In this document: one piece after another, positions 7,997-24,000 of the stretch
How positions within the stretch are numbered: position 1 is the first letter of the stretch
Layout: each line of letters starts with the position of its first letter
Assembly (NCBI RefSeq): GCF_017255185.1
Contig: NZ_JAFKCZ010000008.1
Coordinates: 83,714-107,713, forward strand
Length of the DNA: 24,000 nt
Direction of reading: 5' to 3'
DNA from: Parahaliea mediterranea
Lineage (GTDB): Bacteria; Pseudomonadota; Gammaproteobacteria; Pseudomonadales; Halieaceae
Translations under genes and position numbers: made by a program
The notes under the pieces: model-generated
What the model saw: the letters and a program-made list of their open reading frames with translations, nothing else
Databases searched by the model: none
What the model was told of the DNA's origin: nothing

Positions 7997-9383
7997 GCGG
8001 CTCGATCGCGGCGGCAATGTCCAGCAGGCGGCAGTCGCTGCCGGCGGGGCCATCGAGTTCCATGCCGATGGGCATGTCACCACCCGCGGCGGGCAGGCTG
8101 ATACCGGGAATACCGGCGTTCGAGGCGGGATCGGTGTTGCGAATGTAGGTGTTGAAGGTCGGGCGGCGCTCTCCGTTCAGGGACACCGTTTCCAGGTTGC
8201 CGGCAATCGGCCGCGCCGCCAGCGGCGTGGTGGGAAAAATCACCGCCTCGACATCGTGCCCTGCGAAATAGTCCCGATAGGCCCCCTGCAGCGCCCGCCG
8301 GTGTTCGCCGACAGCACTGCGGTAGCTGGCCTCATCGACGGCGCCCCCCAGCGCATCGCCGACCACCGCTTTGACATCGGGGCTGGCAATACTGTCCACG
8401 AAGGCCTCGATGCCCAGCCCCGGCCGGTACCGCGCCAGGTAGTCAGGCAGCAATCTGCTGGTTTCGTACAGCACCACGGGAAAGCCCACGGCGCCGTTCA
8501 GCGACTCGATGTCCGCAATATCCGCCTCCACCAGTACCGCGCCAGCCGCCGCCAGGCGCTCCAGGGACGCGGCCGCCGCGGCGGCGACGAGCGGGCTCAG
8601 ATCGTCGTAGAAGTAGGCGCGGGGCACACCGAGTCGCAAACCCGCCAGCTTTGCGGGCTCCAGGCTGCCGCAGGCCTCATCGGCCATCACGCTGTCGAGC
8701 AGGGCCGCGGTACGCACATTCATCGCTATCGGTCCGGCGGTATCCCGCGTGGTGGAAATCAGCGTCATGCCGCTGTTGGGATAGCGGCCGGTGGTGGGCC
8801 GGAAACCGACCACCCCGTTCAGCGCGGCGGGGATGCGCACCGAACCCCCGGTATCGGTGCCGATACCGGCATCGACCAGCCCCAGGGCCACGGCGACGGC
8901 GGTGCCGCCACTGGAGCCCCCGGCGAGGTAGTCCGCATCCCGGGCATTGCCAACCACTCCGTAGGCGGTGTTGGCGCTGGTAATACCGTAGGCGAGTTCG
9001 TGCAGGTTGTTCTTGCCGGCGATGGTCGCCCCCGCGGCCCTGAGCCGCGCGACAACCCCGGCATCCTCCCCGGGCACGAAGCTGGCCAAAGCCGGCGTCC
9101 CCGCGGTGTTGGGCAGGCCGGCGACGTGGATATTGTCCTTGATGCCCAGGGTCATCCCGTCGAGCGGGCCGGCGCCGGTCGGCGGGATGCTGGCCCGGGT
9201 GATGAAGCTGGCGTGCTCGCTGGGGTTGTCGGTGTACGGTTGCTGCGCGATGACGACAGCCGGTGGGCTCACGACCTGGCCTGGCGACTTCTCGCTACCG
9301 CCCCAGGCACTGGCCGCCATGCCCAGGAGAACGGCCCCGGCGTTGACGACCCAGTTGCGATCACGCAAAACTCCAGTCACCAC
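7971..9383 (-). CDS. Amidase-signature family amidase with N-terminal signal peptide
   Basis: 470 aa. GTG start at 9383, with GGAAGGAGAG 7 nt upstream. Signal-like N-terminus [24 protein letters not shown] signature [47 protein letters not shown], plus an upstream LGIKDNI lysine. The 3' end overlaps the acylase 3' end by 26 bp (convergent). Confidence 0.85.
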
Positions 9384-9458: not shown

Positions 9459-10913
9459 CTAGCGCGGTTTCCACGCCGGCGCCACCATGCGCCGCTTGCC
9501 ATCGACGGTGAGCGCGACCCCCGGCTCGTCCAGTTGCTCCCGGTCCCACAGCTCACAGGTGACCTGCTTGTGTTTCTGGTCCAGGCCCTCGCAGTAGTTG
9601 CTGTAGCGGCATACGATGACTTGCGGGCCGTAGCCGGTGCGCACCTTCTCGAACCAGTCCGGGTCCGCCAGGGCCTGGCGGGCGAAGCCGATGATGTCGG
9701 CCTTGTCCTCCCGCAGGATGTCCTCGGCGGCCTTGAAACCGAAGATGCCGCCGGCGACCACCACCGGGATGTCGAGCTGGTGCGCCTGCAGCGTCTGGCG
9801 GATGGCCGCCACCGGCTCGATATTGCGCCCGAAGGGCCCCTGTTCATCGGAAATATAACCCGGCATGCACTCGTAGCCGCTCTGCCCGGTATAGGGATAG
9901 GCGGCCCAGCCCACCTTCGGTTGCTTGGCGTCGTCGAATTTGCCGCCGCGGGACAGGGACAGGAAATCCATGCCGGCCTCGGCAAAGCAGCGGGCGAAGT
10001 AGCAGGCGTCGTCGACCCGGTTGCCGCCGTCGATGATCTCGTCGCTCAGGAAGCGGCAGCCCACGGCGAATTGGTCGCCGGTGGCCTCGCGCACCGCGCG
10101 GTACACCTCCAGGGGCAGCCTCACGCGACCCTCCCGCGCCCCGCCGTAGCCGTCCTCGCGGGTGTTGGTGGCCGACAGGAAAGAGGCCATGGTATAGGCG
10201 TGGGCGTAGTGCAGCTCCACCCCGTCAAAACCCGCTTCCTCGGCGCGCCGCGCGGCGTCGGCGAACAGGCCGGGCAGGGTTCGCGGCAAATCGGCGACAC
10301 CGGGAATGTGGGTGTCGGTCACCCGCTCCCGGTAGCCCATTTGCATGTCTTCCCACTCCTTGGGGGTCAGCGCGGCTTGCAGCGCACCGGGTTCCAGGGC
10401 CAGCAGCGCCTCGCGCACCGCCGCCTCGTCCGCGCCGGGCAGATCGAGCGCCTGGCGATGGTGGTCGCCCACCGCGAGAAAGCGGCGCAGGAACTTCTCC
10501 GGGTCCGGGCGGCGGCGAATGGGCAGGAAGTCGATGATCTGGATCAGCAGACGGGTCTGGCCCTCGCTGGCCTCGCGCACCACATCCACCAGTTTTTTCA
10601 GCCCGGGGATGTAGCGGTCGTCGCCGATACGCAGCAGGGGGCCGCTGGGAATGTCGCGGATGCCGGTGGCCTCGACCACGATGGCGCCGGGCTTGCCGCG
10701 GGCGAAGCGCTCGTACCACTGCAGTACGTCGGCGGTGACCTCGCCCTCCTCGTTGGAGCGCCAGGGCACCATGGCCGGTATCCAGGTGCGCTGGTCCAGG
10801 GTCAGCGGGCCGGCCCTTAGCGGCGAGAACAGGCGACTGGCGGCGGCCTCGGAGGCGCTGGGCCAGTCCTCCTCAACAGCGGTGTACTTGATGCGTTGCG
10901 GCGGTTTCCACAT
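9459..10913 (-). CDS. Atypical old-yellow-enzyme family FMN oxidoreductase (484 aa, with an insertion)
   Basis: It aligns by eye with the C-terminal OYE domain of the 11744..14071 protein: AEEAGFDGVELHYAHAYTMASFLSATNTREDGYGGAREGRVRLPLEVYRAVRE versus [59 protein letters not shown] lies 6 nt upstream of ATG 10913. The C-terminal Cys-containing tail is VCRYSNYCEGLDQKHKQVTCE. Confidence 0.8.
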   Translation of the reverse strand: MWKPPQRIKYTAVEEDWPSASEAAASRLFSPLRAGPLTLDQRTWIPAMVPWRSNEEGEVTADVLQWYERFARGKPGAIVVEATGIRDIPSGPLLRIGDDRYIPGLKKLVDVVREASEGQTRLLIQIIDFLPIRRRPDPEKFLRRFLAVGDHHRQALDLPGADEAAVREALLALEPGALQAALTPKEWEDMQMGYRERVTDTHIPGVADLPRTLPGLFADAARRAEEAGFDGVELHYAHAYTMASFLSATNTREDGYGGAREGRVRLPLEVYRAVREATGDQFAVGCRFLSDEIIDGGNRVDDACYFARCFAEAGMDFLSLSRGGKFDDAKQPKVGWAAYPYTGQSGYECMPGYISDEQGPFGRNIEPVAAIRQTLQAHQLDIPVVVAGGIFGFKAAEDILREDKADIIGFARQALADPDWFEKVRTGYGPQVIVCRYSNYCEGLDQKHKQVTCELWDREQLDEPGVALTVDGKRRMVAPAWKPR

Positions 10914-10938
10914 GGTCGACTCCCGATTGAAGGAGCCG

Positions 10939-10958
10939 ATATTTTAAATCTAAAATAT
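10939..10958. promoter_or_regulatory. Operator copy 1: palindrome ATATTTTA-AATC-TAAAATAT overlapping the promoter of the OYE-like gene
   Basis: Perfect 8-bp arms with a 4-bp spacer, 26 bp upstream of ATG 10913. On the minus strand a TTGCAC (10970..10965), an 18-nt spacer and a TAAAAT (10946..10941) form a plausible sigma70 promoter whose -10 lies inside the palindrome. The same motif occurs at 11631 and 22988. Confidence 0.6.
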
Positions 10959-11134
10959 TTTGCTGTGCAAGCCGCGGCGGCGTGTTGGCGCCCATGTCCG
11001 CGAGCGCCGCTTGCCCCCGCCCCACCCCATGCTTGCGCGCGCGACGCTCAACTATCGCGAAATACCTGGCTAGTAACGGGGGAAATGGGCCGCCGCCCGC
11101 GCGAGGGGGCGACGAAATGCGCGGCGGAGGCCGG

Positions 11135-11620
11135 CTATAGCCCCTCTTTTACCCGGCTGAGCAGGACCATCAACTGATCCACCTCAGCAACCTCGAGGTG
11201 CCCCAGCATGCCGATAATCCAGTGCTCGTGCTCCTCGGCCATCTGCGCGAAAGTCCGCGCGCCTTTCGGGGTCAACTTGACCAGCACGGTGCGCCGGTTG
11301 TCCGGCAACGGACTGCGCTCCACCAGGCCCTCGTTGACCAGCTGTGTGGCGATGCCGGAAATATTGCCCCCGGACACCATCATGCGCCGGGACAACTCGC
11401 CCATGGTGAGCCCGTTGGGCGTGCGCTCGAGCTGCGCCAGGAAATCGAAGCGCGGCAGCGTGGTATCGAAGGTTTCGCGCAGCGAGGTGCGCAGGCGCGA
11501 CTCGATCAGGCTGGAGCAGGTCAGCAGACGCAGCCACAGCTTGATGGAGTGGTGATCATCCTCGTGAAGGCGCGTTTCCTGGTCGAGGGTAACAAGTGCT
11601 TGGGGTTCGCTAGTGGCCAT
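11135..11620 (-). CDS. MarR family transcriptional regulator
   Basis: 161 aa with a winged-helix pattern: LPRFDFLAQLERTPNGLTMGELSRRMMVSGGNISGIATQLVNEGLVERSPLPDNRRTVLVKLTPKGARTF. It is divergent from the monooxygenase/reductase operon, with a palindromic site in between. Confidence 0.85.
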   Translation of the reverse strand: MATSEPQALVTLDQETRLHEDDHHSIKLWLRLLTCSSLIESRLRTSLRETFDTTLPRFDFLAQLERTPNGLTMGELSRRMMVSGGNISGIATQLVNEGLVERSPLPDNRRTVLVKLTPKGARTFAQMAEEHEHWIIGMLGHLEVAEVDQLMVLLSRVKEGL

Positions 11621-11630
11621 GTGTCAGTTG

Positions 11631-11650
11631 ATATTTTAAATATAAAATGT
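11631..11650. promoter_or_regulatory. Operator copy 2: ATATTTTAAATATAAAATGT in the divergent marR / monooxygenase-reductase promoter region
   Basis: Imperfect version of the same palindrome (8 of 10 positions symmetric per half). It sits 11 bp upstream of the marR ATG (11620). It also lies just upstream of a plus-strand TATACT (11657..11662) that could serve as the -10 for the 11744 operon. Confidence 0.55.
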
Positions 11651-11743
11651 TTGCGCTATACTGGCATCAAGCTTTAAGCTTAAACTATTATTGCCTGTCT
11701 GGCGACCGCCACTGGCGCCCGACCCTTGAAGAGAGGAATGCCC

Positions 11744-14071
11744 ATGAAAATCGTGTGCCTCGGCGGCGGCCCTTCCGGCCTGTACCTGGCCATCTCCATG
11801 AAGCTGCGCGACCCCTCCCACGACGTCACGGTGTACGAGCGCAACCGCCCGGACGACACCTTCGGCTGGGGCGTGGTGTTCAGCGACCAAACGCTGGAAA
11901 ACCTGATGGCCAATGACCCGGTCAGCGGCGAGCGAATCGCCGGCGAGTTTATCCACTGGGACCTGATCGACTGCTACTTCAAGGGCGAGATGGAGCGCTC
12001 CGACGGCCACGGCTTTATCGGCCTCGGGCGCAAGCGCATGCTGCAGCTGTTGCACGAGCGCTGCCGGGAACTGGGCGTCAAGCTGGAATTCGAGAGTGAA
12101 TTCAGCCCCGAGGACATCGACACCCGCTTTGCCGACGCCGACGTGGTGGTGGCCGCGGACGGCATCAACTCCCGCATCCGCAACGCCGACCTCGAGACCT
12201 TCGATTGCAGCGTCGACGTGCGCCCCAACAAGTTCGTCTGGCTGGGTACCAAGCAGACCTTCCGCGACGCCTTTACCTTTATCTTCGAGGAAACCGAGCA
12301 CGGCTGGATCTGGGCCCACGCCTACCAGTTCGACGAGGAGACCTCCACCTTCATCGTCGAGTGCAACCCCGACGTCTACGACGCCATCGGCTTCGAGCAC
12401 ATGAGCCACGCCGAAAGCGCCGAGACCTGCCGCAAGATCTTCGAGAAGTACCTCGGCGGCCACGAGCTGCTGACCAACTCGGCCCATATCCGCGGTTCCG
12501 CCTGGATCAACTTCCCCCACGTGCTGTGCCGCAACTGGGTGAAAGACGACCGCCTGGTACTGATCGGCGACGCCGCCCACACCGCCCACTTCTCCATTGG
12601 CTCGGGCACCAAGCTGGGCCTGGAAGACGCCATTTCCCTGGCCGATCACCTGACCCGCGACGCCACCATCGGCGAGGCCCTGCACGCCTACCAGGCGGAG
12701 CGCGAGATCGACGCCCTGCGCCTGCAAAACAGCGCGCGCAACGCCATGATCTGGTTCGAGAATGTGCCCCGCTACGCCAAGGCCTTCGACCTGAAGCAGT
12801 TCAACTACTCCATGCTCACCCGCAGCCAGCGGGTGAGCCACGAAAACCTGCGCCTGCGCGACAAGACCTGGCTGGAGGGCATGGAGAAACACCTGGCCAA
12901 GCGCGTGCTGGGCGATGACTTCGACGAGGCCGTGCCGCCCATGTTCCTGCCCTACAAGCTGCGGGACATGAAGCTGATCAACCGCGTGGTGGTGTCGCCG
13001 ATGTCGATGTACAGCGCCGTGGACGGCCAGCCGGACGACTGGCACCTGGTGCACTACGGCGCCCTGGCCAAGGGCGGCGCGGGCCTGGTGTACACCGAGA
13101 TGACCGATGTGTCGCCGGAGGGCCGCATCACCCCCGGGTGCGCCGGCATCTGGAACGACGAGCAGGAAGCGGGCTGGAAACGCATCAACGACTTCGTGCA
13201 CCAGCACACCCAGGCCAGATTCTGCCTGCAGATCGGCCACGCCGGCGCCAAGGGCGCCACCAAGGAGCCCTGGAAGTGGGATCCGGCCATCCTCGACGAG
13301 CCCCTGGACGCCGCCGATCAGTGGCCCCTGGTGTCCGCCTCCGCCATCCCCTACGACAGCTACAGCCCGGTGCCGACGGCGCTGACCCGGGAGATGATGG
13401 ACGAGATCACCGCCCAGCATGTCGCCGCGGCGCAGCGCGCCGAGCGCGCCGGCTTCGACATGATCGAGCTGCACGCCGCCCACGGCTACCTGCTCAGCTC
13501 CTTCATCACCCCGGTAATGAACCAGCGCGACGACGAATACGGCGGCAGCCTGGAGAACCGGTTGCGCTATCCGCTCGAGGTATTCCGCGCCATGCGCGAG
13601 GTGTGGCCGCAGGACAAGCCGATGTCGGTGCGCATCTCCGCCTGCGACTGGATGGCCGAGCAGGGCAACACCGAAGAGGACGCGGTGGCTATCGCCCGCG
13701 CCTTCAGCGAGGCCGGCGCCGACATCATAGACGTGTCCAGCGGCCAGGTTTCCCACGACGCCAAGCCCCTGCCCGGGCGCATGTTCCAGACCCCGTTGTC
13801 GGACCGCATCCGCAACGAGGGCGGGCTCGCCACCATGGCGGTGGGCAACATCTACGAGGTGGACCACGTCAACAGCATCATCGCCGCCGGCCGCGCGGAC
13901 CTGGTGTGCCTGGCGCGGCCGCACCTGGCGGACCCGGCCTGGACCCTGCGCGCCGCCGCGGAAATGGGCCACACCGGCGTCGGCGTGGTCGAACCGCACC
14001 AGTACTTCCTCGGTTACCGCCAGCTCCATATCAACATGGAGCGGGCCCGGGAAATGGCGGCCAACGCATGA
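11744..14071 (+). CDS. Bifunctional aryl-CoA FAD monooxygenase / OYE-type reductase (2-aminobenzoyl-CoA monooxygenase/reductase; salicylyl-CoA 5-hydroxylase-like)
   Basis: ORF 11726..14071(+), trimmed to ATG 11744 (GAGAGGA 6 nt upstream). The N-terminal half is a group-A flavin monooxygenase: [16 protein letters not shown] Rossmann GxGxx[10 protein letters not shown], and [24 protein letters not shown]. The C-terminal half from ~aa 400 is an OYE TIM-barrel: [10 protein letters not shown] and [32 protein letters not shown]. This fusion architecture is the hallmark of the Azoarcus evansii 2-aminobenzoyl-CoA monooxygenase/reductase family. Confidence 0.85.
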
Positions 14072-14826
14072 TACACGCCCTGATCACCGGCGCCGGCAGC
14101 GGCATCGGCGCCGCCATCACCCGCACGCTCGCGGGGCAGGGCTACGCCGTCAGCCTGCTCGGCCGCCGCGAGGCGCCGTTGCAGGCCACCAGCGGGCAGC
14201 TGCCCGAGGGCGCCCGCAGCCACATAGCCACCTGCGATGTCACCGACAGCGACAGCGTCGCGCGCGCCTTCGACAGCGCGCGCGCGGCCCTCGGCGACAT
14301 CGACGTGCTGGTCAACTGCGCCGGCGCGGCGCCCACCACGCCCTTCCACAAACTCGACAGCGCCGGCTGGCGCGCGGTGATGGCGGTGAACCTGGACGGC
14401 GTGTTCAACTGCTGCGCCCAGGTGGTGCCGGCAATGCGCGAGCGCGGCGCCGGACGCATCGTCAATATCGCCAGCACCGCCTCCCTCAAGGGCTATGCTT
14501 ACGTCAGCGCCTACTGCGCGGCCAAGCACGGCGTGCTGGGCCTGACCCGCGCCCTGGCCCTGGAACTGGCGCGCAAGGGCGTAACCGTGAACGCGGTGTG
14601 CCCCGGTTACACCGACACCGATATTATCCGCGACGCCGTGGCCAATATTGTGCAGAAAACCGGCCGCAGCGAGGAGCAGGCGCTGGAGGAGTTCACCCGC
14701 GTCAATCCTCAGGGCCGCCTGATCGACCCGCAGGAAGTGGCGGATACCGTGACCTGGCTGTGCTCCGAGGGCGCGCGCTCGGTCACCGGGCAGGCGATTT
14801 CCATCAGCGGTGGCGAGACCAGCTGA
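14068..14826 (+). CDS. Short-chain dehydrogenase/reductase (probable hydroxyacyl-CoA dehydrogenase of the pathway)
   Basis: The real start is the internal ATG 14068 of track ORF 13138..14826. It forms an ATGA overlap with the upstream stop (14069..14071), suggesting translational coupling. Motifs: [16 protein letters not shown] (TGxxxGxG), NIASTAS...YCAAK (YxxxK). Confidence 0.85.
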
Positions 14827-14862
14827 CGCAACGATTGCAACACAACAACACAGGACCGCAGC

Positions 14863-15675
14863 ATGCAACTATCATCCATGGCGGGCTACCAGGCCACGCA
14901 TTTTCTCTGGGAGGCCGATGAGGGCGTCGCCACCATCACCCTGAACCGCCCCGAGCGCAAGAACCCGTTGACCTTCGATTCCTACGCCGAGCTGCGCGAC
15001 CTGTTTCGCGCGCTGGTGTACGCCGACGACATCCACGCCGTGGTGATCCGCGGCGCCGGCGGTAATTTCTGCTCGGGCGGCGACGTGCACGAGATCATTG
15101 GCCCGCTGACCAAAATGAGCATGAAAGAGCTGCTGGCCTTCACCCGCATGACCGGCGACCTGGTCAAGGCCATGCGCGCCTGCCCGCAGCCCATTGTCAG
15201 CGCGGTCGAGGGCGTGTGCGCCGGCGCCGGCGCCATCGTCGCCATGAGCTCCGACCTGCGCTACGCGGCCCCGGACGCCAAGGTGGCCTTCCTGTTCAAC
15301 CGCGTGGGCCTGGCCGGCTGCGACATGGGGGCCTGCGCCCTGCTGCCGCGCATTATCGGCCAGGGACGCGCCAGCGAGCTGCTCTACTTCGGCCGCGCGA
15401 TGAAAGCCGAGGAAGGCGAGCGCTGGGGCTTTTTCAACGCGGTCAGCGACGACCCCGCCGCGGACGCCCTGAAGGCCGCCCGCCGCATCACCGAGGGCCC
15501 GACCTTCGCCAACGGCATCACCAAGACCCAGCTGCACCAGGAGTGGAACATGTCCGTGGACCAGGCCATCGAGGCGGAAGCCCAGGCCCAGGCCATCTGC
15601 ATGCAGGGCAAGGATTTCGAGCGCGCCTACAACGCCTTCGTCAACAAGCAAACGCCGGTGTTCGAAGGCGACTAG
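14863..15675 (+). CDS. Enoyl-CoA hydratase/isomerase (crotonase) family protein
   Basis: 270 aa. [26 protein letters not shown]...[17 protein letters not shown]...[21 protein letters not shown] is a typical crotonase fold signature. AGGA lies 7 nt upstream of the ATG. Confidence 0.85.
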
Positions 15676-15687
15676 GGGAAATACGCT

Positions 15688-16878
15688 ATGAGCGACAGAA
15701 GCTACCTGCAGTGGCCCTTCCTGGATGACAGCCACCGCGACCTGGAGGCGGTTGTCGACCGCTGGGCCAGCGAGCACATCCCGGCACTGGTGGCCAACGA
15801 GCACGACGACCTCGACGGCACCTGCATCGGCCTGGTGCGCGCCATGGGCGAGGCCGGGATCACCAGCTATGCGGTCCCCGCCAGCGGCGGCGGCGCCCTC
15901 GACAAGCTCAGCGTGCGCAGCCTGTGCCTGATTCGCGAAACCCTCGGCCGGCACCACGCCCTGGCGGACTTTGCCTTCGCCATGCAGGGCCTGGGCTCGG
16001 GCCCGATCTCGCTGTTCGGCAGCGACGCGCAGAAGGAGCGCTTCCTGCCCGACGTGGCGGCGGGTAAAAAACTGTCCGCCTTCGCCCTGTCCGAACCCGA
16101 CGCGGGCTCCGACGTGGCGGCCATGGCCTGCAGCGCCACCCTGGACGGCGACCACTACGTGCTGAACGGGGAAAAGACCTGGATCTCCAACGGCAGCATC
16201 GCGGATTTCTACACCGTGTTCGCGCGCACCGACGAGGCCCCGGGCGCCAAGGGCATCAGTTGCTTTATCGTCGAGGCGGACACCCCCGGTTTCGAGATCG
16301 CCGAGCGCATCGACCTGGTGGCGCCCCACCCCCTGGCCACCCTGCGCTTCACCAACTGCCGGGTACCGGCGGCCAACCGGGTCGGCGAATCCGGCCGCGG
16401 TTTCGGCATCGCCATGGGCACGCTGGACGTGTTCCGCTCCACCGTGGCCGCCGCGGCGCTGGGCATGGCGCGCCGGGCGCTGGATGAAAGCCTGGCCCAC
16501 GTGCAGCAACGCAAGGCCTTCGGCGGCACTCTCGCCGACCTGCAACTGGTGCAGGGCAAGCTGGGGGACATGGCCCTGGCCATCGACAGCAGCGCCCTGC
16601 TGGTCTACCGCTCGGCCTGGACCCGCGACTGCGTCGCCGACCGGGTCACCCGGGAGGCGGCGATGGCCAAGCTACACGCCACCGAGTCGGCGCAACAGGT
16701 GATCGACGCCGCGGTGCAGTTGCACGGCGGCCAGGGCGTGCGCCGCGGGCACATCGTCGAGTCGCTGTACCGGGACATCCGCGCCCTGCGGATCTACGAG
16801 GGCGCCTCGGAAGTGCAGCAGACCATCATCGCCCGCCAGGCCCTGGCGGCCTTTGGCGAGGCCGGCGGACGGTCCTAG
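15688..16878 (+). CDS. Acyl-CoA dehydrogenase
   Basis: 396 aa. [24 protein letters not shown] and the C-terminal [10 protein letters not shown] with the catalytic Glu are classic ACAD motifs. Confidence 0.9.
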
Positions 16879-16997
16879 GCCGCACCCACGCCATCGCCAG
16901 CCCCAAGGGGCGACAGTGGACGCTGTGCGCCGCCCTGGTTTAAGGTAGCGGCGGCGGGCCCCGAGGCCCGCCGTCGTCACCCCACAGGGAACCGCAC

Positions 16998-17459
16998 ATG
17001 AGCCGATACTGGAGCGACCTGCAGCCCGGCGAGACTTTCGCCACCGGCCAGCTGACGCTGGACCGGGAAGCCATTCTCGACTTCGCCGCCGAGTTCGACC
17101 CCCAACCCTACCACCTCGACAACGCCGCAGCGGAAGACTCCATCTTCGGCGGCCTGTGCGCCAGCGGCTGGCAGGTGACGGCGCTGATGATGCGCCTGCT
17201 GACCGACACCCTCCACCAACAGGGCGTGCCGGTCATGGGTATCGACTCGGTCCCCTCCCTGCGCTGGAAGGCGCCGGTGTTCGTCGATGACACGCTCCAG
17301 GGTAAAGTGACCATCCGCGGCGGCGAGAACAACTCGCGACAGGCGGGCTGCGGTCGCACCCACATGGACATCACCGTGCACAACCAGGACGGCCGGCCGG
17401 TCATCGAGCTGAACGCCGTGCTGCTGGTGGCCCACGGGGAGCACAGCGATGCAGCGTAA
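16998..17459 (+). CDS. MaoC-like (R)-specific hydratase hot-dog protein, subunit 1
   Basis: 153 aa. The hydratase-2-like segment FDPQPYHLDNAAAEDSIFGGLCASGW retains both Asp and His. AGGGAA lies 6 nt upstream of the ATG. Confidence 0.8.
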   Translation: MSRYWSDLQPGETFATGQLTLDREAILDFAAEFDPQPYHLDNAAAEDSIFGGLCASGWQVTALMMRLLTDTLHQQGVPVMGIDSVPSLRWKAPVFVDDTLQGKVTIRGGENNSRQAGCGRTHMDITVHNQDGRPVIELNAVLLVAHGEHSDAA

Positions 17460-17964
17460 GCCCTACATCCGCAGCCGCTGGTGGGAGGACATCCCGGTCG
17501 GCGAGTTCCACGTGTTCGGTTCCCACACCTTCAGCGAGCTGGAAATCATCGAGTTCGGCGAGCGCTACGCCCCCGAAATCTACCACACCGACCCGGTGGC
17601 GGCGCGGGATACCCTGCACCGCGGCCTGGTGGCCTCCGGCTGGCACCTGACCGCGACCTGGATGCGCTTGATGGTGGACTACATGGAGCGCTTCGCCCGC
17701 GGCGTGCGCGACGGCCGCCGCAACGGGGCGGGCATGGGCCTGGAGGACCTGGAGTGGTTCGTGCCGGTGCGGCCCGGGCACACCATCACCTTCACCTACG
17801 AGATCACCGAGAAACCCGAGCGCGTGGTGCGCGACCGCTGGGGCATCATTCGCAGCCGCAACGAGGCCTACAACCAGTACAACGAGCTGGTGATGCGGTT
17901 TAACATCGATATTCTCGCGGAGCGCAATCCGGGGGTGGAGGACGGCGGGGCGTTGGCCGAATGA
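17449..17964 (+). CDS. MaoC-like hot-dog protein, subunit 2 (catalytic Asp position replaced)
   Basis: 171 aa. It overlaps the upstream gene by 11 bp, with GGGGAG 7 nt upstream. The equivalent segment YAPEIYHTDPVAARDTLHRGLVASGW has Ala where subunit 1 has Asp. The last codons and the TGA stop (17962..17964) lie inside the first REP hairpin. Confidence 0.75.
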   Translation: MQRKPYIRSRWWEDIPVGEFHVFGSHTFSELEIIEFGERYAPEIYHTDPVAARDTLHRGLVASGWHLTATWMRLMVDYMERFARGVRDGRRNGAGMGLEDLEWFVPVRPGHTITFTYEITEKPERVVRDRWGIIRSRNEAYNQYNELVMRFNIDILAERNPGVEDGGALAE

Positions 17965-18407
17965 ATTCGGCCGAGAAGCGGCGGAATGAATTCCGCCCGA
18001 CGGGGTGACGCCATCCGCGCCGTGTAGGGTCGAATTTATTCGACCGAAAAGCGGCGGAATGAATTCCGCCCTACAGGGGGCGCCACCCGCGCCGTGTAGG
18101 GTCGAATTTATTCGGCCGAGAAGCGGCGGAATGAATTCCGCCCGACGGGGTGACGCCATCCGCGCCGTGTGGGGGCGAATTCATTCGACCGAGAAGCGGC
18201 GGAATGAATTCCGCCCTACAGGGGGCGCCATCCGCGCCGTGTTGGGTCGAATTCATTCGACCGAAAAGCGGCGGAATGAATTCCGCCCTACAGGGGGCGC
18301 CATCCGCGCCGTGTGGGGGCGAATTTATTCGACCGAAAAGCGGCGGAATGAATTCCGCCCTACAGGGGGGCGCCATCCGCGCCGTGTGGGGTCGAATTTA
18401 TTCGACC
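17955..18407. repeat. BIME-like array of 13 alternating REP-type hairpins (about six tandem units of 72-73 bp)
   Basis: 18-bp palindromes of the form GGNNGAAT-NN-ATTCNNCC start at 17955, 17980, 18028, 18053, 18100, 18125, 18173, 18198, 18245, 18270, 18317, 18342 and 18390. The GGTCGAATTTATTCGACC type and the GGCGGAATGAATTCCGCC type alternate. They are separated by a 7-nt linker (GAAAAGC or GAGAAGC) and a conserved ~27-30-nt linker (CTACAGGGGGCGCCATCCGCGCCGTGTAG). Read with their flanks they are one family, TGTAGGG(T/C)(C/G)GAAT..ATTC..CC, in alternating orientation. The array fills the whole gap between convergent genes ending at 17964 and 18413. Confidence 0.9.
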
Positions 18408-18412
18408 ACGGC

Positions 18413-19951
18413 TTACGCCGCCCGATTCGAGGCCTTGGGTTCGCTGCCAGCCGATGATGCCGCCAGCGACTGGCGAAACGCCACGCCATCGTCATCGGCA
18501 AAGGCGGTTTCGCGCCAGTGGGCCACGGCCGCCGCGGACGCCCCGCCCTGCTCCGCCCGCGCCAGGATATCGGCCACCTGGGCGCTGGTGCGCGCGCGGG
18601 TGTCGCCGTATCCCTTCACCAGCCGACCGCACTCCGCCAGCTCGCGGGCCAAATCCAGATCGTCTCCCTGCGCCGCGCGGCGGATCGCCTGCAGCCAGCG
18701 CCCGATCAGCGCGTGCTCCTCGGCGTAGGCGAGACTGCGGCGCCGCCAGCGCCGCAGGCCAGCCAGAATGCGCAGCACCAGGAATACGCCAATGGTATTG
18801 GTGCGCAGCTTCTTGCCGCCGGTGAAGCGGCCGATCACGGCGCTGGCGGGGCGCGAGGATTGCACTGCGCGCCCCAGTCCCGCGGGCAGCATGCCGCAGA
18901 CTTCCTCCACCCGGGGGCGGAAGAACTCGGTCACGTCGAAAAGCTGCCCGGGCTCGGCCTTGACCTCGTCGCGGACCTTGTCCATGCGCGAGGCGCGGGT
19001 TTTCAACTGCGCCACCCGGGGGATATCCTCGAAACACATCCACAGCGCCAGGTAGCGCGCGGTCTCCCGGGTCAACTGGTGGTCGCCGGCGCCGTCATCG
19101 CGCTCGTGAATGTCTTCCAGCTCGTCCAGGTACTGCCCGGCATAGGCGTAGTCCTGGTAGTCCACCAGCTTGAGCAGGCCCCGGTACAGGACCTCGTGAC
19201 AGTTCTCGGGAAAGACCCGCAGGCGCGCCAGCAGCTGCTCGCCCTCGGGGCTGTGCGCTTGCGGCAGCGCAAAGCCCGCGGCCGGCTCCGCCGCCTTGGC
19301 CGGCTCGAACTGCTGGACCCCGCGCGCCTGGGCCGCCTGGTAGCTGGCGTTGAAGGCCGCGAGGTTGGTTTTCACGGCCTTGCCGGAGGCCTCGATGGCG
19401 GCGATGAAACTCTCCCGGCGAAAGGGCAGCACCCCCGAACCGGCCAGCGCCCCCAGCATCACCGCGGAGATCACCGCATTGTGCGCCTTGGCCAGCGCCG
19501 CCATGTCGAAGTGGATGTAATCCCTGGCGTAGCGGCCGGCAATGGCCTGCACCGCGGCGGGGTCGATGGTGCCATCCCCCAGGTTGATCTTCTCGGTGAT
19601 GCCGTAGACCCGGTGATCCGAGGCGATCAGCGTGGTGCGGTCCGGGGTCACAAAGCCCCGCTGCACCATGCGCCCGGCCTCCGCCACTTCCGAGGCAATG
19701 GCCACGTCGATGTCGCCCTGGGCGGGAAACAGGGACATCACCGGCCGCTCGCCCTCGGGGATGTCGCCGCGGGGGTACATCTCCAGGTAGTAAATAGTGG
19801 CGCCGGTGCGCTGGGCCACCCCCGCGAGGAAGGTGCTCTGGCACAGCCAGCCCTCGCTGTTAGCCACGTCGATCACCCAGTTGGTGAATACGCCGCCGCC
19901 CTCGCCACCCAGGGCGGCGACAACCATGTTGATGGTACGTTGTTTGGTCAT
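18413..19951 (-). CDS. iorB: Indolepyruvate/2-oxoacid:ferredoxin oxidoreductase, beta (IorB-like) subunit family protein
   Basis: 512 aa. The N-terminus INMVVAALGGEGGGVFTNWVIDVA...GVAQRTGATIYYLEM...AQGDIDVAIASEVAEAGR is typical of the pyruvate/ketoisovalerate oxidoreductase gamma-type domain of IorB. A long C-terminal extension follows. The ATG 19951 forms an ATGA overlap with the iorA stop. Confidence 0.8.
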   Translation of the reverse strand: MTKQRTINMVVAALGGEGGGVFTNWVIDVANSEGWLCQSTFLAGVAQRTGATIYYLEMYPRGDIPEGERPVMSLFPAQGDIDVAIASEVAEAGRMVQRGFVTPDRTTLIASDHRVYGITEKINLGDGTIDPAAVQAIAGRYARDYIHFDMAALAKAHNAVISAVMLGALAGSGVLPFRRESFIAAIEASGKAVKTNLAAFNASYQAAQARGVQQFEPAKAAEPAAGFALPQAHSPEGEQLLARLRVFPENCHEVLYRGLLKLVDYQDYAYAGQYLDELEDIHERDDGAGDHQLTRETARYLALWMCFEDIPRVAQLKTRASRMDKVRDEVKAEPGQLFDVTEFFRPRVEEVCGMLPAGLGRAVQSSRPASAVIGRFTGGKKLRTNTIGVFLVLRILAGLRRWRRRSLAYAEEHALIGRWLQAIRRAAQGDDLDLARELAECGRLVKGYGDTRARTSAQVADILARAEQGGASAAAVAHWRETAFADDDGVAFRQSLAASSAGSEPKASNRAA

Positions 19952-22128
19952 AGCGTTCCGGCCGCCTGTTGGTCGTCATCGCGCGACTGCATCCAGCCGA
20001 TCACGGTCTGTCGTAACTTGCCCATCATCCGATCGCGCCAGCTGGGGTTGTACACCAGGTCGACGCGGGAAAAGGACGGGCACAGGATCGCCGAGTGCAC
20101 GTTCTCGCCGCACACGCCGCAGCCCACGCAACTGTTGTCGACGTAGGAAACGGGATCCTTGCGCAGGGGGTCCGGGTTGGGCTTGATGGTCAGCGAGGGG
20201 CAGCCCGACAGGCGGATACAGGCGTGATCCCCGGTACAGGTCTCGGCATCCACCATGAAACGGGCACGCAGGGTGCGCTTGCCATCGGCGATGGAGCGCT
20301 TCATCAGCGGCTTGATGCGCCGCTGCCGGTTGAGCATGCACTCGCCCTCGGCGATGATCACCTTGAGGCCGCCCTCGTCGGTGGTCAGCGCCTCGCGCAG
20401 GGTGTTTTTCATCGCCTCGATATTGTAGGTGCTCACGGTGCGAATCCAGCGCACGCCGGCGCCGCGGCAGGCGTCCTCGATCGGCTGCTGGTCCTCCCGT
20501 GCCGGGGCGTCGGTATCGATGGTGGTGGCGATGATCTTGTTCGGCTCCACCAGCGAGGGAATGTCCTGGCCCCCGGTGGCGGCGGCGTAGCCGTTGTCGA
20601 CGATGATCAACAGGCCGTCGTGCTTGTTGAACACGGCACTGGTCACGCCACTGGTCAGGCCGTTGTGCCAGAAGCCGCCGTCGCCCATGATGCTGATCGA
20701 CTTGTGCGGCAGGGTGTGGCGAATACTGGAGGAACTGGCCAGGGACAGGCCGTAACCCATGATGGTATTGCCCAGGTTAAAGGGCGCCAGGGTGGCGAAG
20801 GAGTGACAGCCGATGTCGGAACTGATGTGAAACGGCCCCAGCTCCTTCTGCACCTGCTTGACCGCCGAAAACAGCGGGCGCTCCGGGCACCCGGTGCAGA
20901 GGCCCGACGGCCGCGGCGGCACGTTGCTCAGCAATTCCCGCTGGTCGTCCTCGGACAGCGGTGTTTCCATCGCCGCCACGGCGGCACTGCCCAGCGCCGG
21001 CGTCATACCCGCCGCCTCCAGGAAGCGTGCAATGCCGAGCAGCATCACCTGCCCGGTGTACTCGCCCGCCATCGGCATGATGTCCTTGCCGTACACCCGG
21101 GTCTGCACATCGGCCCGGCGCAGCACCGTATTGATCCCCTGCTCGACATATTCCGGCTGGCCTTCCTCCAGCACCAACACCTGCTTCTTGTCGGCGCAGA
21201 ACTGGACCAGCTCGTCCGGTACCAGCGGGTAGGCCACGTTCATCACGTAGATGGGTATGTCGGAATTGCCGAGTACGTCGGACAGGCCCTGGCGCTGCAG
21301 GGCGCGCACCAGGGTGTTGTAGCAACCCCCCTGTACGATAATGCCGAGGTCGCCGTGCTTGCCGGGGAAGAACTCGTTGAGTTTGCGCTCTTTGATGAAT
21401 TCAATCGCCGCCGGCAGGCGCTGTGCGATTTTCTCGCGCTCGTGGGCGTAGACATTGGGCGGCAGGATGATCTTGTCCGCCTCGCGATTGGGGATGACCG
21501 GATTGCTGTCGCTGTACCGCGGGGGCACGTTGTCGTGGGCGACAAATTCACCCGAAACGTGGCAACCGCGAATCCGCATCATGAAGAACAGCGGCGTATT
21601 GCTGGCCTCCGACAGTTCGAAGCCCTTCTCCACCATGTCCACGATGCTGGGCAGGTTGGGCCTGGGGTCCAACAGCCACATCTGCGCCTTCATGGCGAAG
21701 GCGTAGGTGCGCTCCTGCATGATGCTGGAGCCCTCGCCGTAGTCCTCGCCGACGATCACCATGGCGCCGCCGGTCACGCCGGAGGAGGCCAGGTTGGACA
21801 GGGCGTCCGAGGCGACATTGGTGCCCACGGTGGATTTCCAGGTCACGGCGCCGCGCAGCGGGTAATTGATCGACGCACTGAGCATCGCCGCCGCAGTCGC
21901 CTCGCTGCCCGCCGCCTCGAAGTGTACCCCCAGCTCGCCCAGGATATCCTGGGCGTCGTTGAGCACATCCATCAACGCGGAAATCGGCGCGCCCTGGTAG
22001 CCGCTGACATAGGACACCCCGGACTGCAGCAGCGCCTTGGTGATGGCGAGGATGCCCTCGCCCTTGAACACCTCGCCGTCGCCGGCGCGCAGCTTCAGGA
22101 CTTCCTCGGCAAAGGAACGTTCAGCCAT
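19948..22128 (-). CDS. iorA: Indolepyruvate/2-oxoacid:ferredoxin oxidoreductase, alpha (IorA-like) subunit, TPP and Fe-S binding
   Basis: 726 aa. TPP motif IMGDGGFWHNGLTSGVTSAVFNKHDGLLIIVDNGYAAATGGQ (GDG...N). C-terminal Cys clusters ETCTGDHACIRLSGCPS and NSCVGCGVCGENVHSAILCPS (CxxCxxC...CP). The N-terminal pyrimidine-binding domain reads SGYQGAPIS...GEDYGEGSS. Confidence 0.85.
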   Translation of the reverse strand: MAERSFAEEVLKLRAGDGEVFKGEGILAITKALLQSGVSYVSGYQGAPISALMDVLNDAQDILGELGVHFEAAGSEATAAAMLSASINYPLRGAVTWKSTVGTNVASDALSNLASSGVTGGAMVIVGEDYGEGSSIMQERTYAFAMKAQMWLLDPRPNLPSIVDMVEKGFELSEASNTPLFFMMRIRGCHVSGEFVAHDNVPPRYSDSNPVIPNREADKIILPPNVYAHEREKIAQRLPAAIEFIKERKLNEFFPGKHGDLGIIVQGGCYNTLVRALQRQGLSDVLGNSDIPIYVMNVAYPLVPDELVQFCADKKQVLVLEEGQPEYVEQGINTVLRRADVQTRVYGKDIMPMAGEYTGQVMLLGIARFLEAAGMTPALGSAAVAAMETPLSEDDQRELLSNVPPRPSGLCTGCPERPLFSAVKQVQKELGPFHISSDIGCHSFATLAPFNLGNTIMGYGLSLASSSSIRHTLPHKSISIMGDGGFWHNGLTSGVTSAVFNKHDGLLIIVDNGYAAATGGQDIPSLVEPNKIIATTIDTDAPAREDQQPIEDACRGAGVRWIRTVSTYNIEAMKNTLREALTTDEGGLKVIIAEGECMLNRQRRIKPLMKRSIADGKRTLRARFMVDAETCTGDHACIRLSGCPSLTIKPNPDPLRKDPVSYVDNSCVGCGVCGENVHSAILCPSFSRVDLVYNPSWRDRMMGKLRQTVIGWMQSRDDDQQAAGTL

Positions 22129-22134
22129 ATAAAT

Positions 22135-22926
22135 TTACCCCTGGGGTACCAGCGCCAGCACCCGCGCCGGGCTGCCGGAGCCGTTCTTGATCTTGAGCGG
22201 CGCGGCGATCAGGATCGCGCCGGTGGGCGGCAGCTGGTCCAGGTTGCACAGGCTGGCCAGGCCGCACTTGTTGGCGCCGTGCATCAGGTTGTGGCAGGGA
22301 AACATCGGGTCCTGCGCCGGCGCCTGGCCGGCGTCGGTGCCCACGGTTTCCACGCCGACACCGATCACGTCGCGCTCCTCCGCCAAAAATACCACCGTGG
22401 CCGGATCCCAGCCCGGGGTGTGGCTGCCGTCATCCTGTGCATTAAGGTATTCCTCGTTAGAGGCTTTCTTCGACCAATCGGTGCGGTACAGCACCCAGGA
22501 GCCGGCGGGGATCTCGCCGTGGCGCTCCTCCCAGGCCTTGATGAAATCGACACTCATCAGGAAATCCGGGTCGGCGGCGGATTCCGCCACCGCGTCGATC
22601 ACCACCGCGGGGGCCACAAAACGCTCCGGCGGCAGGGTGTCGGTGGCGTGGTTTTCGTGGTCCTTGCCGGTCACCCAGTGGATGGGCGCGTCGAAGTGGG
22701 TACCGGTGTGCTCGCCGCACTTCAGGTTGTTCCAGTACCAGGCGGGCCCCTTCTCGTCGTAGCGTGAAATCTGCTCCATGCTGAAGGGCCAGGACTCGCC
22801 CCAGCCGAATTCGGTGGGCAACTGAAGGATCGGCGTATCCGGCGACAGCGTGGCTGTCAGGTCGACGATACGCACCTTGCCGCTGGCAAGGCCCAGTGCG
22901 AGTTCAGTCAGAACGGAATCGGTCAT
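22135..22926 (-). CDS. Cyclase-family metal-dependent amidohydrolase (kynurenine formamidase / isatin hydrolase family)
   Basis: ORF 22135..22962(-), trimmed to ATG 22926 (GGGGAGAA 5 nt upstream). It carries the family motif HTGTHFDAPIHW (HxGTHxDxPxH). Only 6 nt separate its stop from the iorA ATG, so the two genes share an operon. Confidence 0.8.
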   Translation of the reverse strand: MTDSVLTELALGLASGKVRIVDLTATLSPDTPILQLPTEFGWGESWPFSMEQISRYDEKGPAWYWNNLKCGEHTGTHFDAPIHWVTGKDHENHATDTLPPERFVAPAVVIDAVAESAADPDFLMSVDFIKAWEERHGEIPAGSWVLYRTDWSKKASNEEYLNAQDDGSHTPGWDPATVVFLAEERDVIGVGVETVGTDAGQAPAQDPMFPCHNLMHGANKCGLASLCNLDQLPPTGAILIAAPLKIKNGSGSPARVLALVPQG

Positions 22927-22982
22927 GCTTATTCTCCCCGGTATGCTGGCTATATTTTCCACGGTTTACCCGCGCTTCGGGT

Positions 22983-23012
22983 GGATTATATTTTAGACCT
23001 AAAATATAATCC
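22983..23012. promoter_or_regulatory. Operator copy 3: perfect 30-bp palindrome GGATTATATTTTAG-AC-CTAAAATATAATCC carrying two divergent TATAAT boxes
   Basis: Perfect 14-bp arms. The core 22988..23007, ATATTTTAGACCTAAAATAT, matches copies 1 and 2. A plus-strand TATAAT at 23005..23010 faces ridA. A minus-strand TATAAT at 22990..22985 faces the cyclase-iorAB operon. Confidence 0.7.
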
Positions 23013-23046
23013 AGTGCCTTAACCGCTAAATCACCTGGAGCACGAT

Positions 23047-23439
23047 ATGCATATCTCCCTGTTACCCGAAGGCTGGCCGCGCCCCAAAGGCTACTCAAAC
23101 GCCATTCTCGCGCGCGGCAACGAGACCATCTTCGTCGGCGGACAGATAGGCTGGAATTCGGATTTCGTATTCGAAAGCAATGACTTCACCGACCAGGTCA
23201 AGCAGGCGCTGACGAATATCACCGACATCCTGGCCAGCGCCGACGCCGGCCCCGAGCACATCACGCGCATGACCTGGTATATCACCGACAAGCAGGCCTA
23301 TGTCAACAACCTCCGCGGCATCGGCGCCGCCTACCGCGAGGTCATGGGCAAGCATTTTCCGGCGATGAGTGTTGTAGAGGTCAGCGCATTGATAGAAGAT
23401 GAGGCCCTCGTGGAAATAGAAGTCACAGCCGTGAAGTGA
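23047..23439 (+). CDS. ridA: RidA/YjgF/L-PSP family enamine/imine deaminase
   Basis: 130 aa. [25 protein letters not shown]...[10 protein letters not shown]...[25 protein letters not shown] is the typical RidA fold sequence. GGAG lies 7 nt upstream of the ATG. Confidence 0.85.
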
Positions 23440-23444
23440 GCCTT

Positions 23445-24000
23445 ATGACAGAAACCGTAAGTTATCGCCGCGATGGCGACATTGGCATCGTTTGTATTGA
23501 CAACCCGCCGGTCAACGCCCTCTCCCACAGTGTGCGCAGCGGGCTGATGGCGGCGCTGGAGCAATCCTCCGCCGACGACAGCCGCGCCCTGGTCGTACAC
23601 TGCGCCGGGCGCACCTTTATCGCCGGCGCGGATATCACCGAGTTTGGCAAGCCGCCCCGGGAGCCCATCCTGGGCGAGGTGCTCGCGCGCCTGGACGCGC
23701 ACGACAAGCTAACCGTGGCGGCCGTGCACGGCACCGCCCTCGGCGGCGGCCTGGAGACCGCCCTGTGCTGCCACTACCGCTGCGCCCTGCCCTCGGCGAA
23801 GGTCGGCCTGCCGGAAGTCAAACTGGGCCTGCTGCCCGGCGCCGGCGGCACCCAGCGCACGCCGCGTCTCACCGGCCTGGAGACCGCCCTGGAACTGATT
23901 ACCAGCGGCAACCCGATGCCCGCCCCGCGGGCCGCCGACGCCGGCCTGGTGGATAAAGTCATCGAGGGCGACGACCTGCTCGCCGGCGCGCTGGCCTACA
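23445..24000 (+). CDS. Multifunctional enoyl-CoA hydratase / 3-hydroxyacyl-CoA dehydrogenase (FadB/FadJ-like), N-terminal part; continues past the window
   Basis: Not in the track because no stop lies in the window. My translation from ATG 23445 gives [142 protein letters not shown]... This is a crotonase domain of the type found at the N-terminus of ~700-aa FadB-like proteins. Confidence 0.8.

Follow-up and report, generated by a model that had tools for sequence, protein, structure and literature searches.

A 24,000-nucleotide stretch of a Halieaceae genome (the window, contig C8:83714-107713; the genome has 5.03 Mb and 64.4% GC) carries three copies of a 20-bp palindrome, each in a promoter region. 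We put at about 0.8 the probability that this palindrome is the predicted operator of the MarR-family protein encoded at 11135-11620, which would act as an autoregulated repressor of an auxin/aminobenzoyl-coenzyme A (CoA) regulon. The original prediction had described the three copies as one operator common to an old yellow enzyme (OYE)-like gene, marR, a monooxygenase/reductase operon, cyclase-iorAB and ridA. The three sequences read as it quoted them, and the common operator is supported by the specificity of the motif, by its conserved footprint, by its co-occurrence with the MarR gene and by the layout of the locus in relatives. A weaker second palindrome in the marR/monooxygenase promoter region (O2) had been missed, and a further copy stands outside the window. 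The regulator gene and the sites are as follows.

11135..11620, minus strand, marR, 161 aa (Pfam MarR_2 46.2 bits and MarR 44 bits, both above cut-off)
10939..10958, site 1, ATATTTTAAATCTAAAATAT, 25 bp upstream of the ATG (10913) of the OYE-like gene
11631..11650, site 2 or O1, ATATTTTAAATATAAAATGT, in the divergent marR/monooxygenase promoter region
11669..11688, O2, the weaker second palindrome, AAGCTTTAAGCTTAAACTAT, 38 bp centre to centre from O1
22988..23007, site 3, ATATTTTAGACCTAAAATAT, core of a perfect 30-bp palindrome at 22983-23012
C8:130192, site 4, ATATTTTACATTTAAAACAT, 22.5 kb past the window, the fourth-best exact-pattern match in the genome

Window and genome were scanned with the pattern ATATTTTA-N4-TAAAATAT, allowing up to two mismatches. 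The window holds three matches, at 10939-10958 and 22988-23007 (no mismatch) and at 11631-11650 (one mismatch), and not a single match occurred in 100 dinucleotide-preserving shuffles of it. The consensus of the palindrome is AYATTTTA-ARYT-TAAAATRT, with half-site centres 12 bp apart. Genome-wide there are six such sites against one for the reversed-pattern control, and seven of the 33 copies of the 8-mer half-site fall within the four C8 sites. The original prediction had itself raised the concern that the motif might be frequent in AT-rich DNA. We reject a generic AT-rich motif: only four of the 796 AT-rich islands in the genome (at least 70% AT over 40 bp) bear it at one mismatch or fewer, compared with a mean of 0.1 in shuffled island sequence, so AT-rich intergenic sequence does not account for the motif. 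Upstream of paaX, an AT-rich stretch (1850-1900; 42.5% GC over 200 bp) lacks the palindrome and is presumably a separate, PaaX-controlled promoter region.

A weight matrix trained solely on the sites of relatives, and then run on the whole genome, placed the window sites first to third (site 2, 44.6 bits; site 1, 43.3 bits; site 3, 40.4 bits), with site 4 at rank 5 (33.7 bits) and O2 at 23.0 bits. The strong hits outside the window are site 4 and a 34.2-bit candidate at C4:334361 (ATATTTTACGTTCAAACTGT, L165:4362-4381). Besides this candidate, the next score below site 4 is 23. Conservation gives the C4:334361 candidate no backing, and we leave it as unsupported; the gene 68 bp downstream of it encodes a TonB-dependent receptor and precedes one for a PhoD-like phosphatase, and the receptor is unrelated to those adjoining sites in relatives. 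One relative (G008, L129) also has a one-mismatch site before an unrelated TonB-dependent receptor. The two-mismatch match at C4:240490, which abuts the start of a LysR gene, is probably a chance occurrence. Another two-mismatch copy, AACTTTTAAGTCTAAAATAT at C1:423947 (L009:3948-3967), is found ~260 bp upstream of another MarR-family gene (L009:3121-3684), whose product is the genome's best match, though a weak one (27% identity), to IadR.

The distribution of the palindrome within the family follows that of the MarR gene. Among 151 Halieaceae genomes (genera include Parahaliea, Haliea, Halioglobus, Kineobactrum and Luminiphilus), 36 have a MarR orthologue at E <=1e-20. The motif AYATTTTA-N4-TAAAATRT, with at most one mismatch, is present in 35 of these 36 genomes (122 sites) versus 11 of the 115 MarR-negative genomes (13 sites), the latter number being about the level of the reversed-pattern control (20 sites over the 151 genomes). 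Because related genomes are not independent, contrasts within a genus weigh more.

Genus g4: motif in 4/4 MarR-positive versus 1/7 MarR-negative genomes
Genus g19: 2/2 versus 0/2
Genus g37: 5/5 versus 0/5
Genus g38: 6/6 versus 0/4
Genus g35: 1/1 versus 1/9

The position of the sites is conserved as well. A site stands just upstream of marR in 29 of 30 family orthologue loci, and most family loci have a second one just past the marR stop, before the OYE-like gene; in nearly every Halieaceae locus this gene comes after marR. An alignment of 28 marR-monooxygenase intergenic regions has just three conserved blocks, namely O1, a -10-like ATAcT at six bases past it, and O2 (TTTAAGCTTAAA core, 38 bp from O1), the remainder being variable; many relatives keep O2 at this +38 spacing. 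In G007, G043, G059, G065, G082, G124 and G148 there is a third perfect site at a distance of 10.8-13 kb from marR. The conserved layout has one site between marR and the OYE-like gene downstream of it, one leading into the monooxygenase operon, and one between the divergent units cyclase-iorA-iorB and ridA-iadF-iadG-iadH-iadD-iadE (with no cyclase match in G043). The functional tie between iorAB and the aminobenzoyl-CoA genes, as first proposed, holds in relatives. In those genomes the iad-like operon sits directly behind ridA, on site 3. In the source genome a FadB-like gene takes that place and the iad-like operon is displaced by ~22 kb, yet has its own operator copy, as would be expected if the site were needed for its control. 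The regulon is larger than the ~14.5 kb first estimated, since it adds this ligase-thiolase-short-chain dehydrogenase (SDR)-Rieske operon.

An extra operator copy, ACATTTTAAGCTTAAAATGT, precedes an rnfA-type gene (Pfam Rnf-Nqr, E 7e-62) by 63 bp in G043 (L125:7562-7581), G082 (L130) and, with one mismatch, G065 (L131), the three genomes belonging to one Halieaceae genus. These copies could tie ferredoxin re-oxidation to the ferredoxin-dependent IorAB, or they could be due to chance.

The window MarR matches 35 solved MarR structures, the best being 3boq (E 1.4e-21). In a wide protein search the 120 matches listed are of Halieaceae type only, with none from Variovorax among them; the closest named protein among these matches is from Parahaliea mediterranea (82% identical). 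We also examined two genomes of the Comamonadaceae group, G662 and G822, whose iad loci encode an iorA-adjacent MarR that matches the Variovorax paradoxus IadR structures 7kfo/7kki (E ~1e-73) and, at a distance of ~25 kb and past a ligase-like gene and two SDR genes, a second MarR. The latter was identified as the IadR2 orthologue by locus order, which is iadF2-iadJ2-iadJ3-iadR2 in strain CL14 (PMC9613470 Supplementary Table 1). The window MarR is 52% (G662, E 7e-51) and 51% (G822) identical to the IadR2 orthologues, whereas its identity to IadR is 31% over 75 residues (E 1.9e-4 to 7kfo). In a phylogenetic tree the window MarR groups with all monooxygenase-linked MarRs and both IadR2 orthologues in a clade (support 99/98) that leaves out IadR and two other MarRs of the source genome, and the alignment reveals the shared signature motifs LWLRLLxC, TLPRFD and MVxGGN. 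By sequence, the window MarR is a member of a subfamily that we call IadR2/ACMR-linked, after IadR2 and the 2-aminobenzoyl-CoA monooxygenase/reductase (ACMR). Orthology to IadR is rejected on the short 31% alignment and the weak 7kfo match, and the source genome holds no close IadR relative, its best match being that 27%-identical protein.

It was previously reported that the IadR2 proteins of Variovorax and Bradyrhizobium do not bind indole-3-acetic acid (IAA) and lack the carboxylate-binding residues (PMC9613470). Deletion of IadR2 (MarR_50) in Variovorax derepressed gene 51 (iadJ3) and led to faster IAA degradation (PMC9613470); Conway et al. 2022 did not identify any ligand for it, or any DNA site (PMC9613470). 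We infer repression by the window MarR from the position of its sites and from this published deletion of a 52%-identical homologue.

Outside the family, we collected 67 further homologue loci from Gamma-, Beta- and Alphaproteobacteria, Chloroflexota and others (MarR identity 51-75%). In all 67 the fused monooxygenase/reductase gene or, in records that break off, the remaining part of its operon lies beside the MarR gene, which is often embedded in the order monooxygenase-(SDR)-MarR-hydratase-dehydrogenase, and related palindromes with a TTTA-N4-TAAA core often occur upstream of the monooxygenase. Four of these non-Halieaceae genomes have no IadD-like gene. From this gene order, the ancestral partner of the MarR subfamily is the monooxygenase/reductase operon, and the attachment of iad genes occurred in some lineages only. 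In G433, which belongs to another family, a 46%-identical MarR of the subfamily (L144:6170-6577) is ~1.3 kb from an iadH-G-F-E-D-like cluster, and no monooxygenase/reductase gene was detected in the 20 kb that we examined.

Consensus scans place promoter hexamers in or against every site. Site 1 overlaps a predicted minus-strand -10 (TAAAAT, 10946-10941). Site 2 contains both the predicted marR -10 (TATATT, 11644-11639) and the predicted monooxygenase -35 (TTTAAA, 11635-11640); the start codon of marR is 10 bp away from it and that of the monooxygenase gene (ATG, 11744) 93 bp. O2 follows just downstream of a conserved -10 (TATACT, 11657-11662) and lies over the expected transcription start; this -10, conserved between O1 and O2, supports the promoter placement at the monooxygenase. 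The ends of the 30-bp palindrome at site 3 form back-to-back TATAAT boxes (23005-23010 on the plus strand, 22990-22985 on the minus strand), and site 4 overlaps the -10 of a predicted TTGACA-N17-TATTTT promoter before the iadF-G-H-D-E-like operon. The cyclase start, previously placed at a GTG (22962), is corrected to the ATG at 22926, which is preceded by GGGGAGAA and leaves site 3 61 bp from the start.

Since each copy overlaps a predicted core promoter element, a MarR dimer binding each of them would shut out RNA polymerase by steric block. Site 1 would cover the -10 of the OYE-like gene, site 2 the marR -10 together with the monooxygenase -35, and O2 the transcription start of the monooxygenase operon; site 3 would cover the two TATAAT boxes serving cyclase-iorAB and ridA, and site 4 the -10 before the iad-like operon. 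The genes that would be controlled within the window are listed below.

9459..10913, minus strand, OYE-like flavin oxidoreductase, 484 aa (Pfam Oxidored_FMN), behind site 1
11744..14071, plus strand, fused FAD monooxygenase/OYE reductase (Pfam FAD_binding_3 and Oxidored_FMN)
14068..14826, plus strand, SDR1, a short-chain dehydrogenase coupled to the monooxygenase by an ATGA overlap
14863-15675, plus strand, enoyl-CoA hydratase, monooxygenase operon
15688-16878, plus strand, acyl-CoA dehydrogenase, monooxygenase operon
16998-17459 and 17449-17964, plus strand, two MaoC hot-dog genes, end of the monooxygenase operon
18413-19951, minus strand, IorB (IadB-like), site-3 operon, 43-46% identical to Variovorax-type iad genes
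19948-22128, minus strand, IorA (IadA-like), site-3 operon, 60-62% identical to Variovorax-type iad genes
22135-22926, minus strand, cyclase-family hydrolase (IadI-like), site-3 operon, 58-60% identical to Variovorax-type iad genes
23047-23439, plus strand, ridA, behind site 3
23436 onward, plus strand, FadB-like enoyl-CoA hydratase/3-hydroxyacyl-CoA dehydrogenase, running past the end of the window

The monooxygenase operon contains an abm-type gene set, consisting of the fused monooxygenase/reductase with hydratase, dehydrogenase, SDR and MaoC genes, and its hydratase-dehydrogenase-MaoC order is kept in the operons of relatives. The fused protein scores 1207 bits with NCBIfam NF006101 (cut-off 1078). 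Because that model is named for salicylyl-CoA 5-hydroxylase, the substrate is not settled by the match, and the product is best described as a putative ACMR or an enzyme of the salicylyl-CoA 5-hydroxylase type. SDR1 shares 58% identity with the protein that corresponds to iadJ3 (gene 51) in the Variovorax-like genome G822. The iorAB genes encode an alpha/beta pair of the indolepyruvate:ferredoxin-oxidoreductase type. No AMP-ligase (aminobenzoate-CoA ligase) is encoded within 9459-24000, and the iadF-like gene beyond the window is the only ligase gene behind a copy of the operator.

This iadF-like gene belongs to the operon behind site 4, which encodes an AMP-ligase, a thiolase-like protein, a ChsH2/OB-fold protein, an SDR, Rieske alpha and beta subunits and a CMD-family protein. 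Gene assignments for IAA degradation were taken from PMC12633357, PMC12852158 and PMC9613470 (Supplementary Table 1). By homology, the gene set of the operon corresponds to Variovorax iadF, iadG, iadH, iadD and iadE, and the window cyclase, IorA and IorB match iadI, iadA and iadB. Identities to Variovorax-type loci are 42-49% for IadD, 51-55% for IadF, 53-55% for IadG and 57-60% for IadH; they are lowest for the Rieske beta subunit (33-41%) and otherwise mostly 41-62%. All the iad-type markers that we looked for (iadA/iadB, iadD/iadE, iadF, iadG, iadH and iadI) were found with Pfam and NCBIfam, IorAB in the window and Rieske alpha/beta 22 kb away. Auxin catabolism of the iad type feeding the aminobenzoyl-CoA pathway is a theme that the original prediction did not name. 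IAA degradation by the source genome is predicted from this gene content, and one autoregulated repressor would control a route from iad-type IAA breakdown to the aerobic 2-aminobenzoyl-CoA pathway, including the upper steps represented by the Rieske oxygenase, CoA ligase, thiolase, SDR, cyclase and IorAB.

An intermediate of the pathway would then lift repression. The leading candidate for the effector is 2-aminobenzoyl-CoA, which we favour at slightly less than even odds because the MarR gene follows the monooxygenase gene across phyla whatever pathway feeds it. A somewhat weaker contender is that the palindrome is a real MarR operator and the effector is not an aryl-CoA at all, but anthranilate, isatinate, isatin, dioxindole or IAA itself. 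Free aromatic acids are the ligands of most MarR proteins characterised from aromatic pathways, and IadR and IacR bind IAA (PMC9613470); moreover, the Halieaceae regulon takes in the first oxygenase steps, which would make an early intermediate a logical inducer. Against such an effector, the subfamily occurs beside the monooxygenase/reductase in every locus, with or without iad genes, which points to a signal from the lower pathway, and the published IadR2 proteins show neither IAA binding nor the carboxylate-binding residues (PMC9613470).

A broader proposal, which we hold only tentatively and consider on the whole rather doubtful, is that MarRs of the IadR2 type repress the lower CoA-thioester branch, their signal being 2-aminobenzoyl-CoA or an intermediate close to it, that in Halieaceae one of them has come to control, through the palindrome AYATTTTA-N4-TAAAATRT, all of the route leading from IAA to central metabolism without an IAA-binding IadR, and that IadA/B turn isatinate directly into 2-aminobenzoyl-CoA. 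The last part comes from the co-regulation of cyclase-IorAB with the monooxygenase/reductase. If true, the direct IadA/B route would by-pass free anthranilate and the CoA ligase.

Several observations weigh against the palindrome being the operator of this MarR. The promoter elements described above are consensus matches only. Within Halieaceae, the MarR-positive genome G042 (genus g6) lacks a site at one mismatch or fewer, and three g6 genomes in which MarR was not detected bear perfect site-3-type copies. The palindrome is absent, by mismatch scan and weight matrix, from three Variovorax-type iad loci, including the IadR2 neighbourhood, and from three other iad-like loci. The whole subfamily therefore does not share it as a universal operator, and we do not put it forward as the operator of every IadR2. 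Regulators encoded nearby might also play a part: a LysR, from a gene immediately upstream of site 4, PaaX, and a second MarR (gene at L007:4765-5247), ~4 kb past the window.

These neighbours lead us to ask whether another factor, such as the LysR, the second MarR or a nucleoid protein, binds the palindrome, the link to the window MarR being one of shared locus ancestry. Nucleoid proteins are drawn to AT-rich promoter DNA, and the LysR gene directly upstream of site 4 and the second MarR gene also count in favour of such a factor. We consider this reading improbable. In 29 of 30 family loci the promoter of the MarR gene itself holds the site, and related forms of it occur in other phyla, with neither such a LysR nor a second MarR seen close to them; in the loci of relatives that retain the sites, no homologue of the LysR, the flavin monooxygenase (FMO) or the amidase was found. 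In addition, strict dyad symmetry, invariant TTTA/TAAA cores and fixed spacing are indicative of a dimeric winged-helix protein, not of a nucleoid protein.

Hardly any more probable, and if anything slightly less so, is that the window MarR binds the sites as an activator or a dual regulator at some promoters. Some MarR-family proteins do activate or act both ways (PMC9613470), and the predicted -35 elements are poor, as is common for activated promoters, but the sites overlap predicted -10 boxes or transcription starts at every promoter, and deletion of Variovorax IadR2 raised expression of the adjacent gene and accelerated IAA degradation. Finally, a non-regulatory origin as a short dispersed repeat, or as an RNA hairpin of the terminator or attenuator kind, is close to excluded and was rejected after RNA folding of the sites: site 3 does fold at -11.4 kcal/mol and the window also has a REP-like array, but folding is weak for sites 1 and 2 (-4.3 and -5.5 kcal/mol) and absent for site 4, every copy is upstream of genes and none downstream, the genome holds just four or five copies, and the sequence itself is conserved, with invariant half-sites and no compensatory changes, so that the element acts as DNA.

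A predicted MarR operator for this regulon has both parallels and differences among known systems. CouR, FerC and HcaR, which respond to hydroxycinnamoyl-CoA, and BadR are MarR repressors of aromatic CoA-thioester pathways that are released by a pathway acyl-CoA, the logic invoked in the original prediction. The window MarR is only distantly similar in sequence (HcaR structure 3k0l, E 1.8e-5) and the operators are unrelated; the likeness is one of logic and not of membership. Escherichia coli MarR is an autoregulated protein that binds palindromes in marO as a dimer, one promoter region having two sites that overlap its -35/-10 and elements further downstream. The system described here is similar in its palindromic sites, two of them in one promoter region, and in its proposed autoregulation; it differs in having at least four promoter regions and five or six units in place of a single operon, and the proteins are only remotely similar (E ~1e-7). 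The abm clusters of Azoarcus evansii, for aerobic 2-aminobenzoate metabolism, have a fused monooxygenase/reductase followed by beta-oxidation-like genes. Unlike them, the cluster in the window has no adjacent aminobenzoate-CoA ligase and is wired to cyclase-IorAB and iad-like genes.

IadR (MarR_73) and IacR are, like the protein proposed here, MarR repressors of auxin-catabolic genes, and they bind one site in the divergent promoter next to iorA/iadA (PMC9613470). The published 24-bp site of IadR, AATTCATGATTGTGGATACATTCA, is unrelated to the palindrome, and its ligand is IAA. The closest parallel in membership is IadR2 of V. paradoxus CL14, which belongs to the same subfamily, comes from a locus that likewise has iadA/B and iadD/E-type genes, and to judge by the Variovorax deletion phenotype represses a neighbouring SDR gene (PMC9613470). 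The Variovorax-type loci differ in lacking a monooxygenase/reductase next to IadR2, and there IadR2 is a minor second regulator beside the IAA-binding IadR; in the source genome, without a close IadR relative, an IadR2-type protein appears to control the whole route. Our literature search found no described MarR regulator of an aminobenzoyl-CoA cluster. The regulator-operator system is thus undescribed in the searchable literature, whereas its kind, a MarR repressor with a palindromic operator and aromatic catabolic genes, is ordinary.

The regulon is flanked by further genes. Upstream in the window are paaK, a hexapeptide transferase gene, paaX, a TonB-dependent receptor gene and a penicillin-amidase homologue, together with the following gene.

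7971..9383, minus strand, amidase-signature enzyme (Pfam Amidase, E 4e-84), 75 bp downstream of the OYE-like gene

This amidase gene is convergent with the penicillin-amidase homologue, and a weak hairpin followed by T's lies between it and the OYE-like gene. Indoleacetamide hydrolases are members of the amidase-signature family; the site-1 OYE-like unit may possibly extend into the amidase gene. The convergent MaoC and IorB genes are separated by six tandem units of ~72-73 bp made of GC-rich 18-bp palindromes (17955-18407), an array resembling the repetitive extragenic palindromes known as REP/BIME, the first unit of which overlaps the end of the second MaoC gene. Behind ridA, the region L007:150-5247 (C8:107149-112246) encodes the 704-aa FadB-like protein, a 519-aa FMO-like flavin monooxygenase and the opposite-strand second MarR. 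Bacterial FMOs are known for indole oxidation. Upstream of site 4 (L008:1795-10117, C8:121794-130116) are genes for a TonB-dependent receptor, a flavin amine-oxidase-like protein, an Amidohydro_3 protein and the LysR; they are possibly an uptake/feeder module, with LysR as a second regulator of the iad-like operon.

With these results, a member of the IadR2 subfamily has a sharply defined, conserved predicted operator and a readable regulon, which makes the unexplained second MarR of iad loci testable; the operator-repressor pair could also be used as a sensor part. It was previously shown that a nine-gene iadC-K2 region restores anthranilate production in a Variovorax iad-locus deletion, and iadA/B lie outside this region (PMC12633357). 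The regulon proposed here hints at what IadA/B, encoded by marker genes of iad loci, may do, and would tie iad-type auxin breakdown to the aerobic 2-aminobenzoyl-CoA pathway. Its gene content also assigns the breakdown of auxin to marine Halieaceae, a point of relevance to algal-bacterial exchange.

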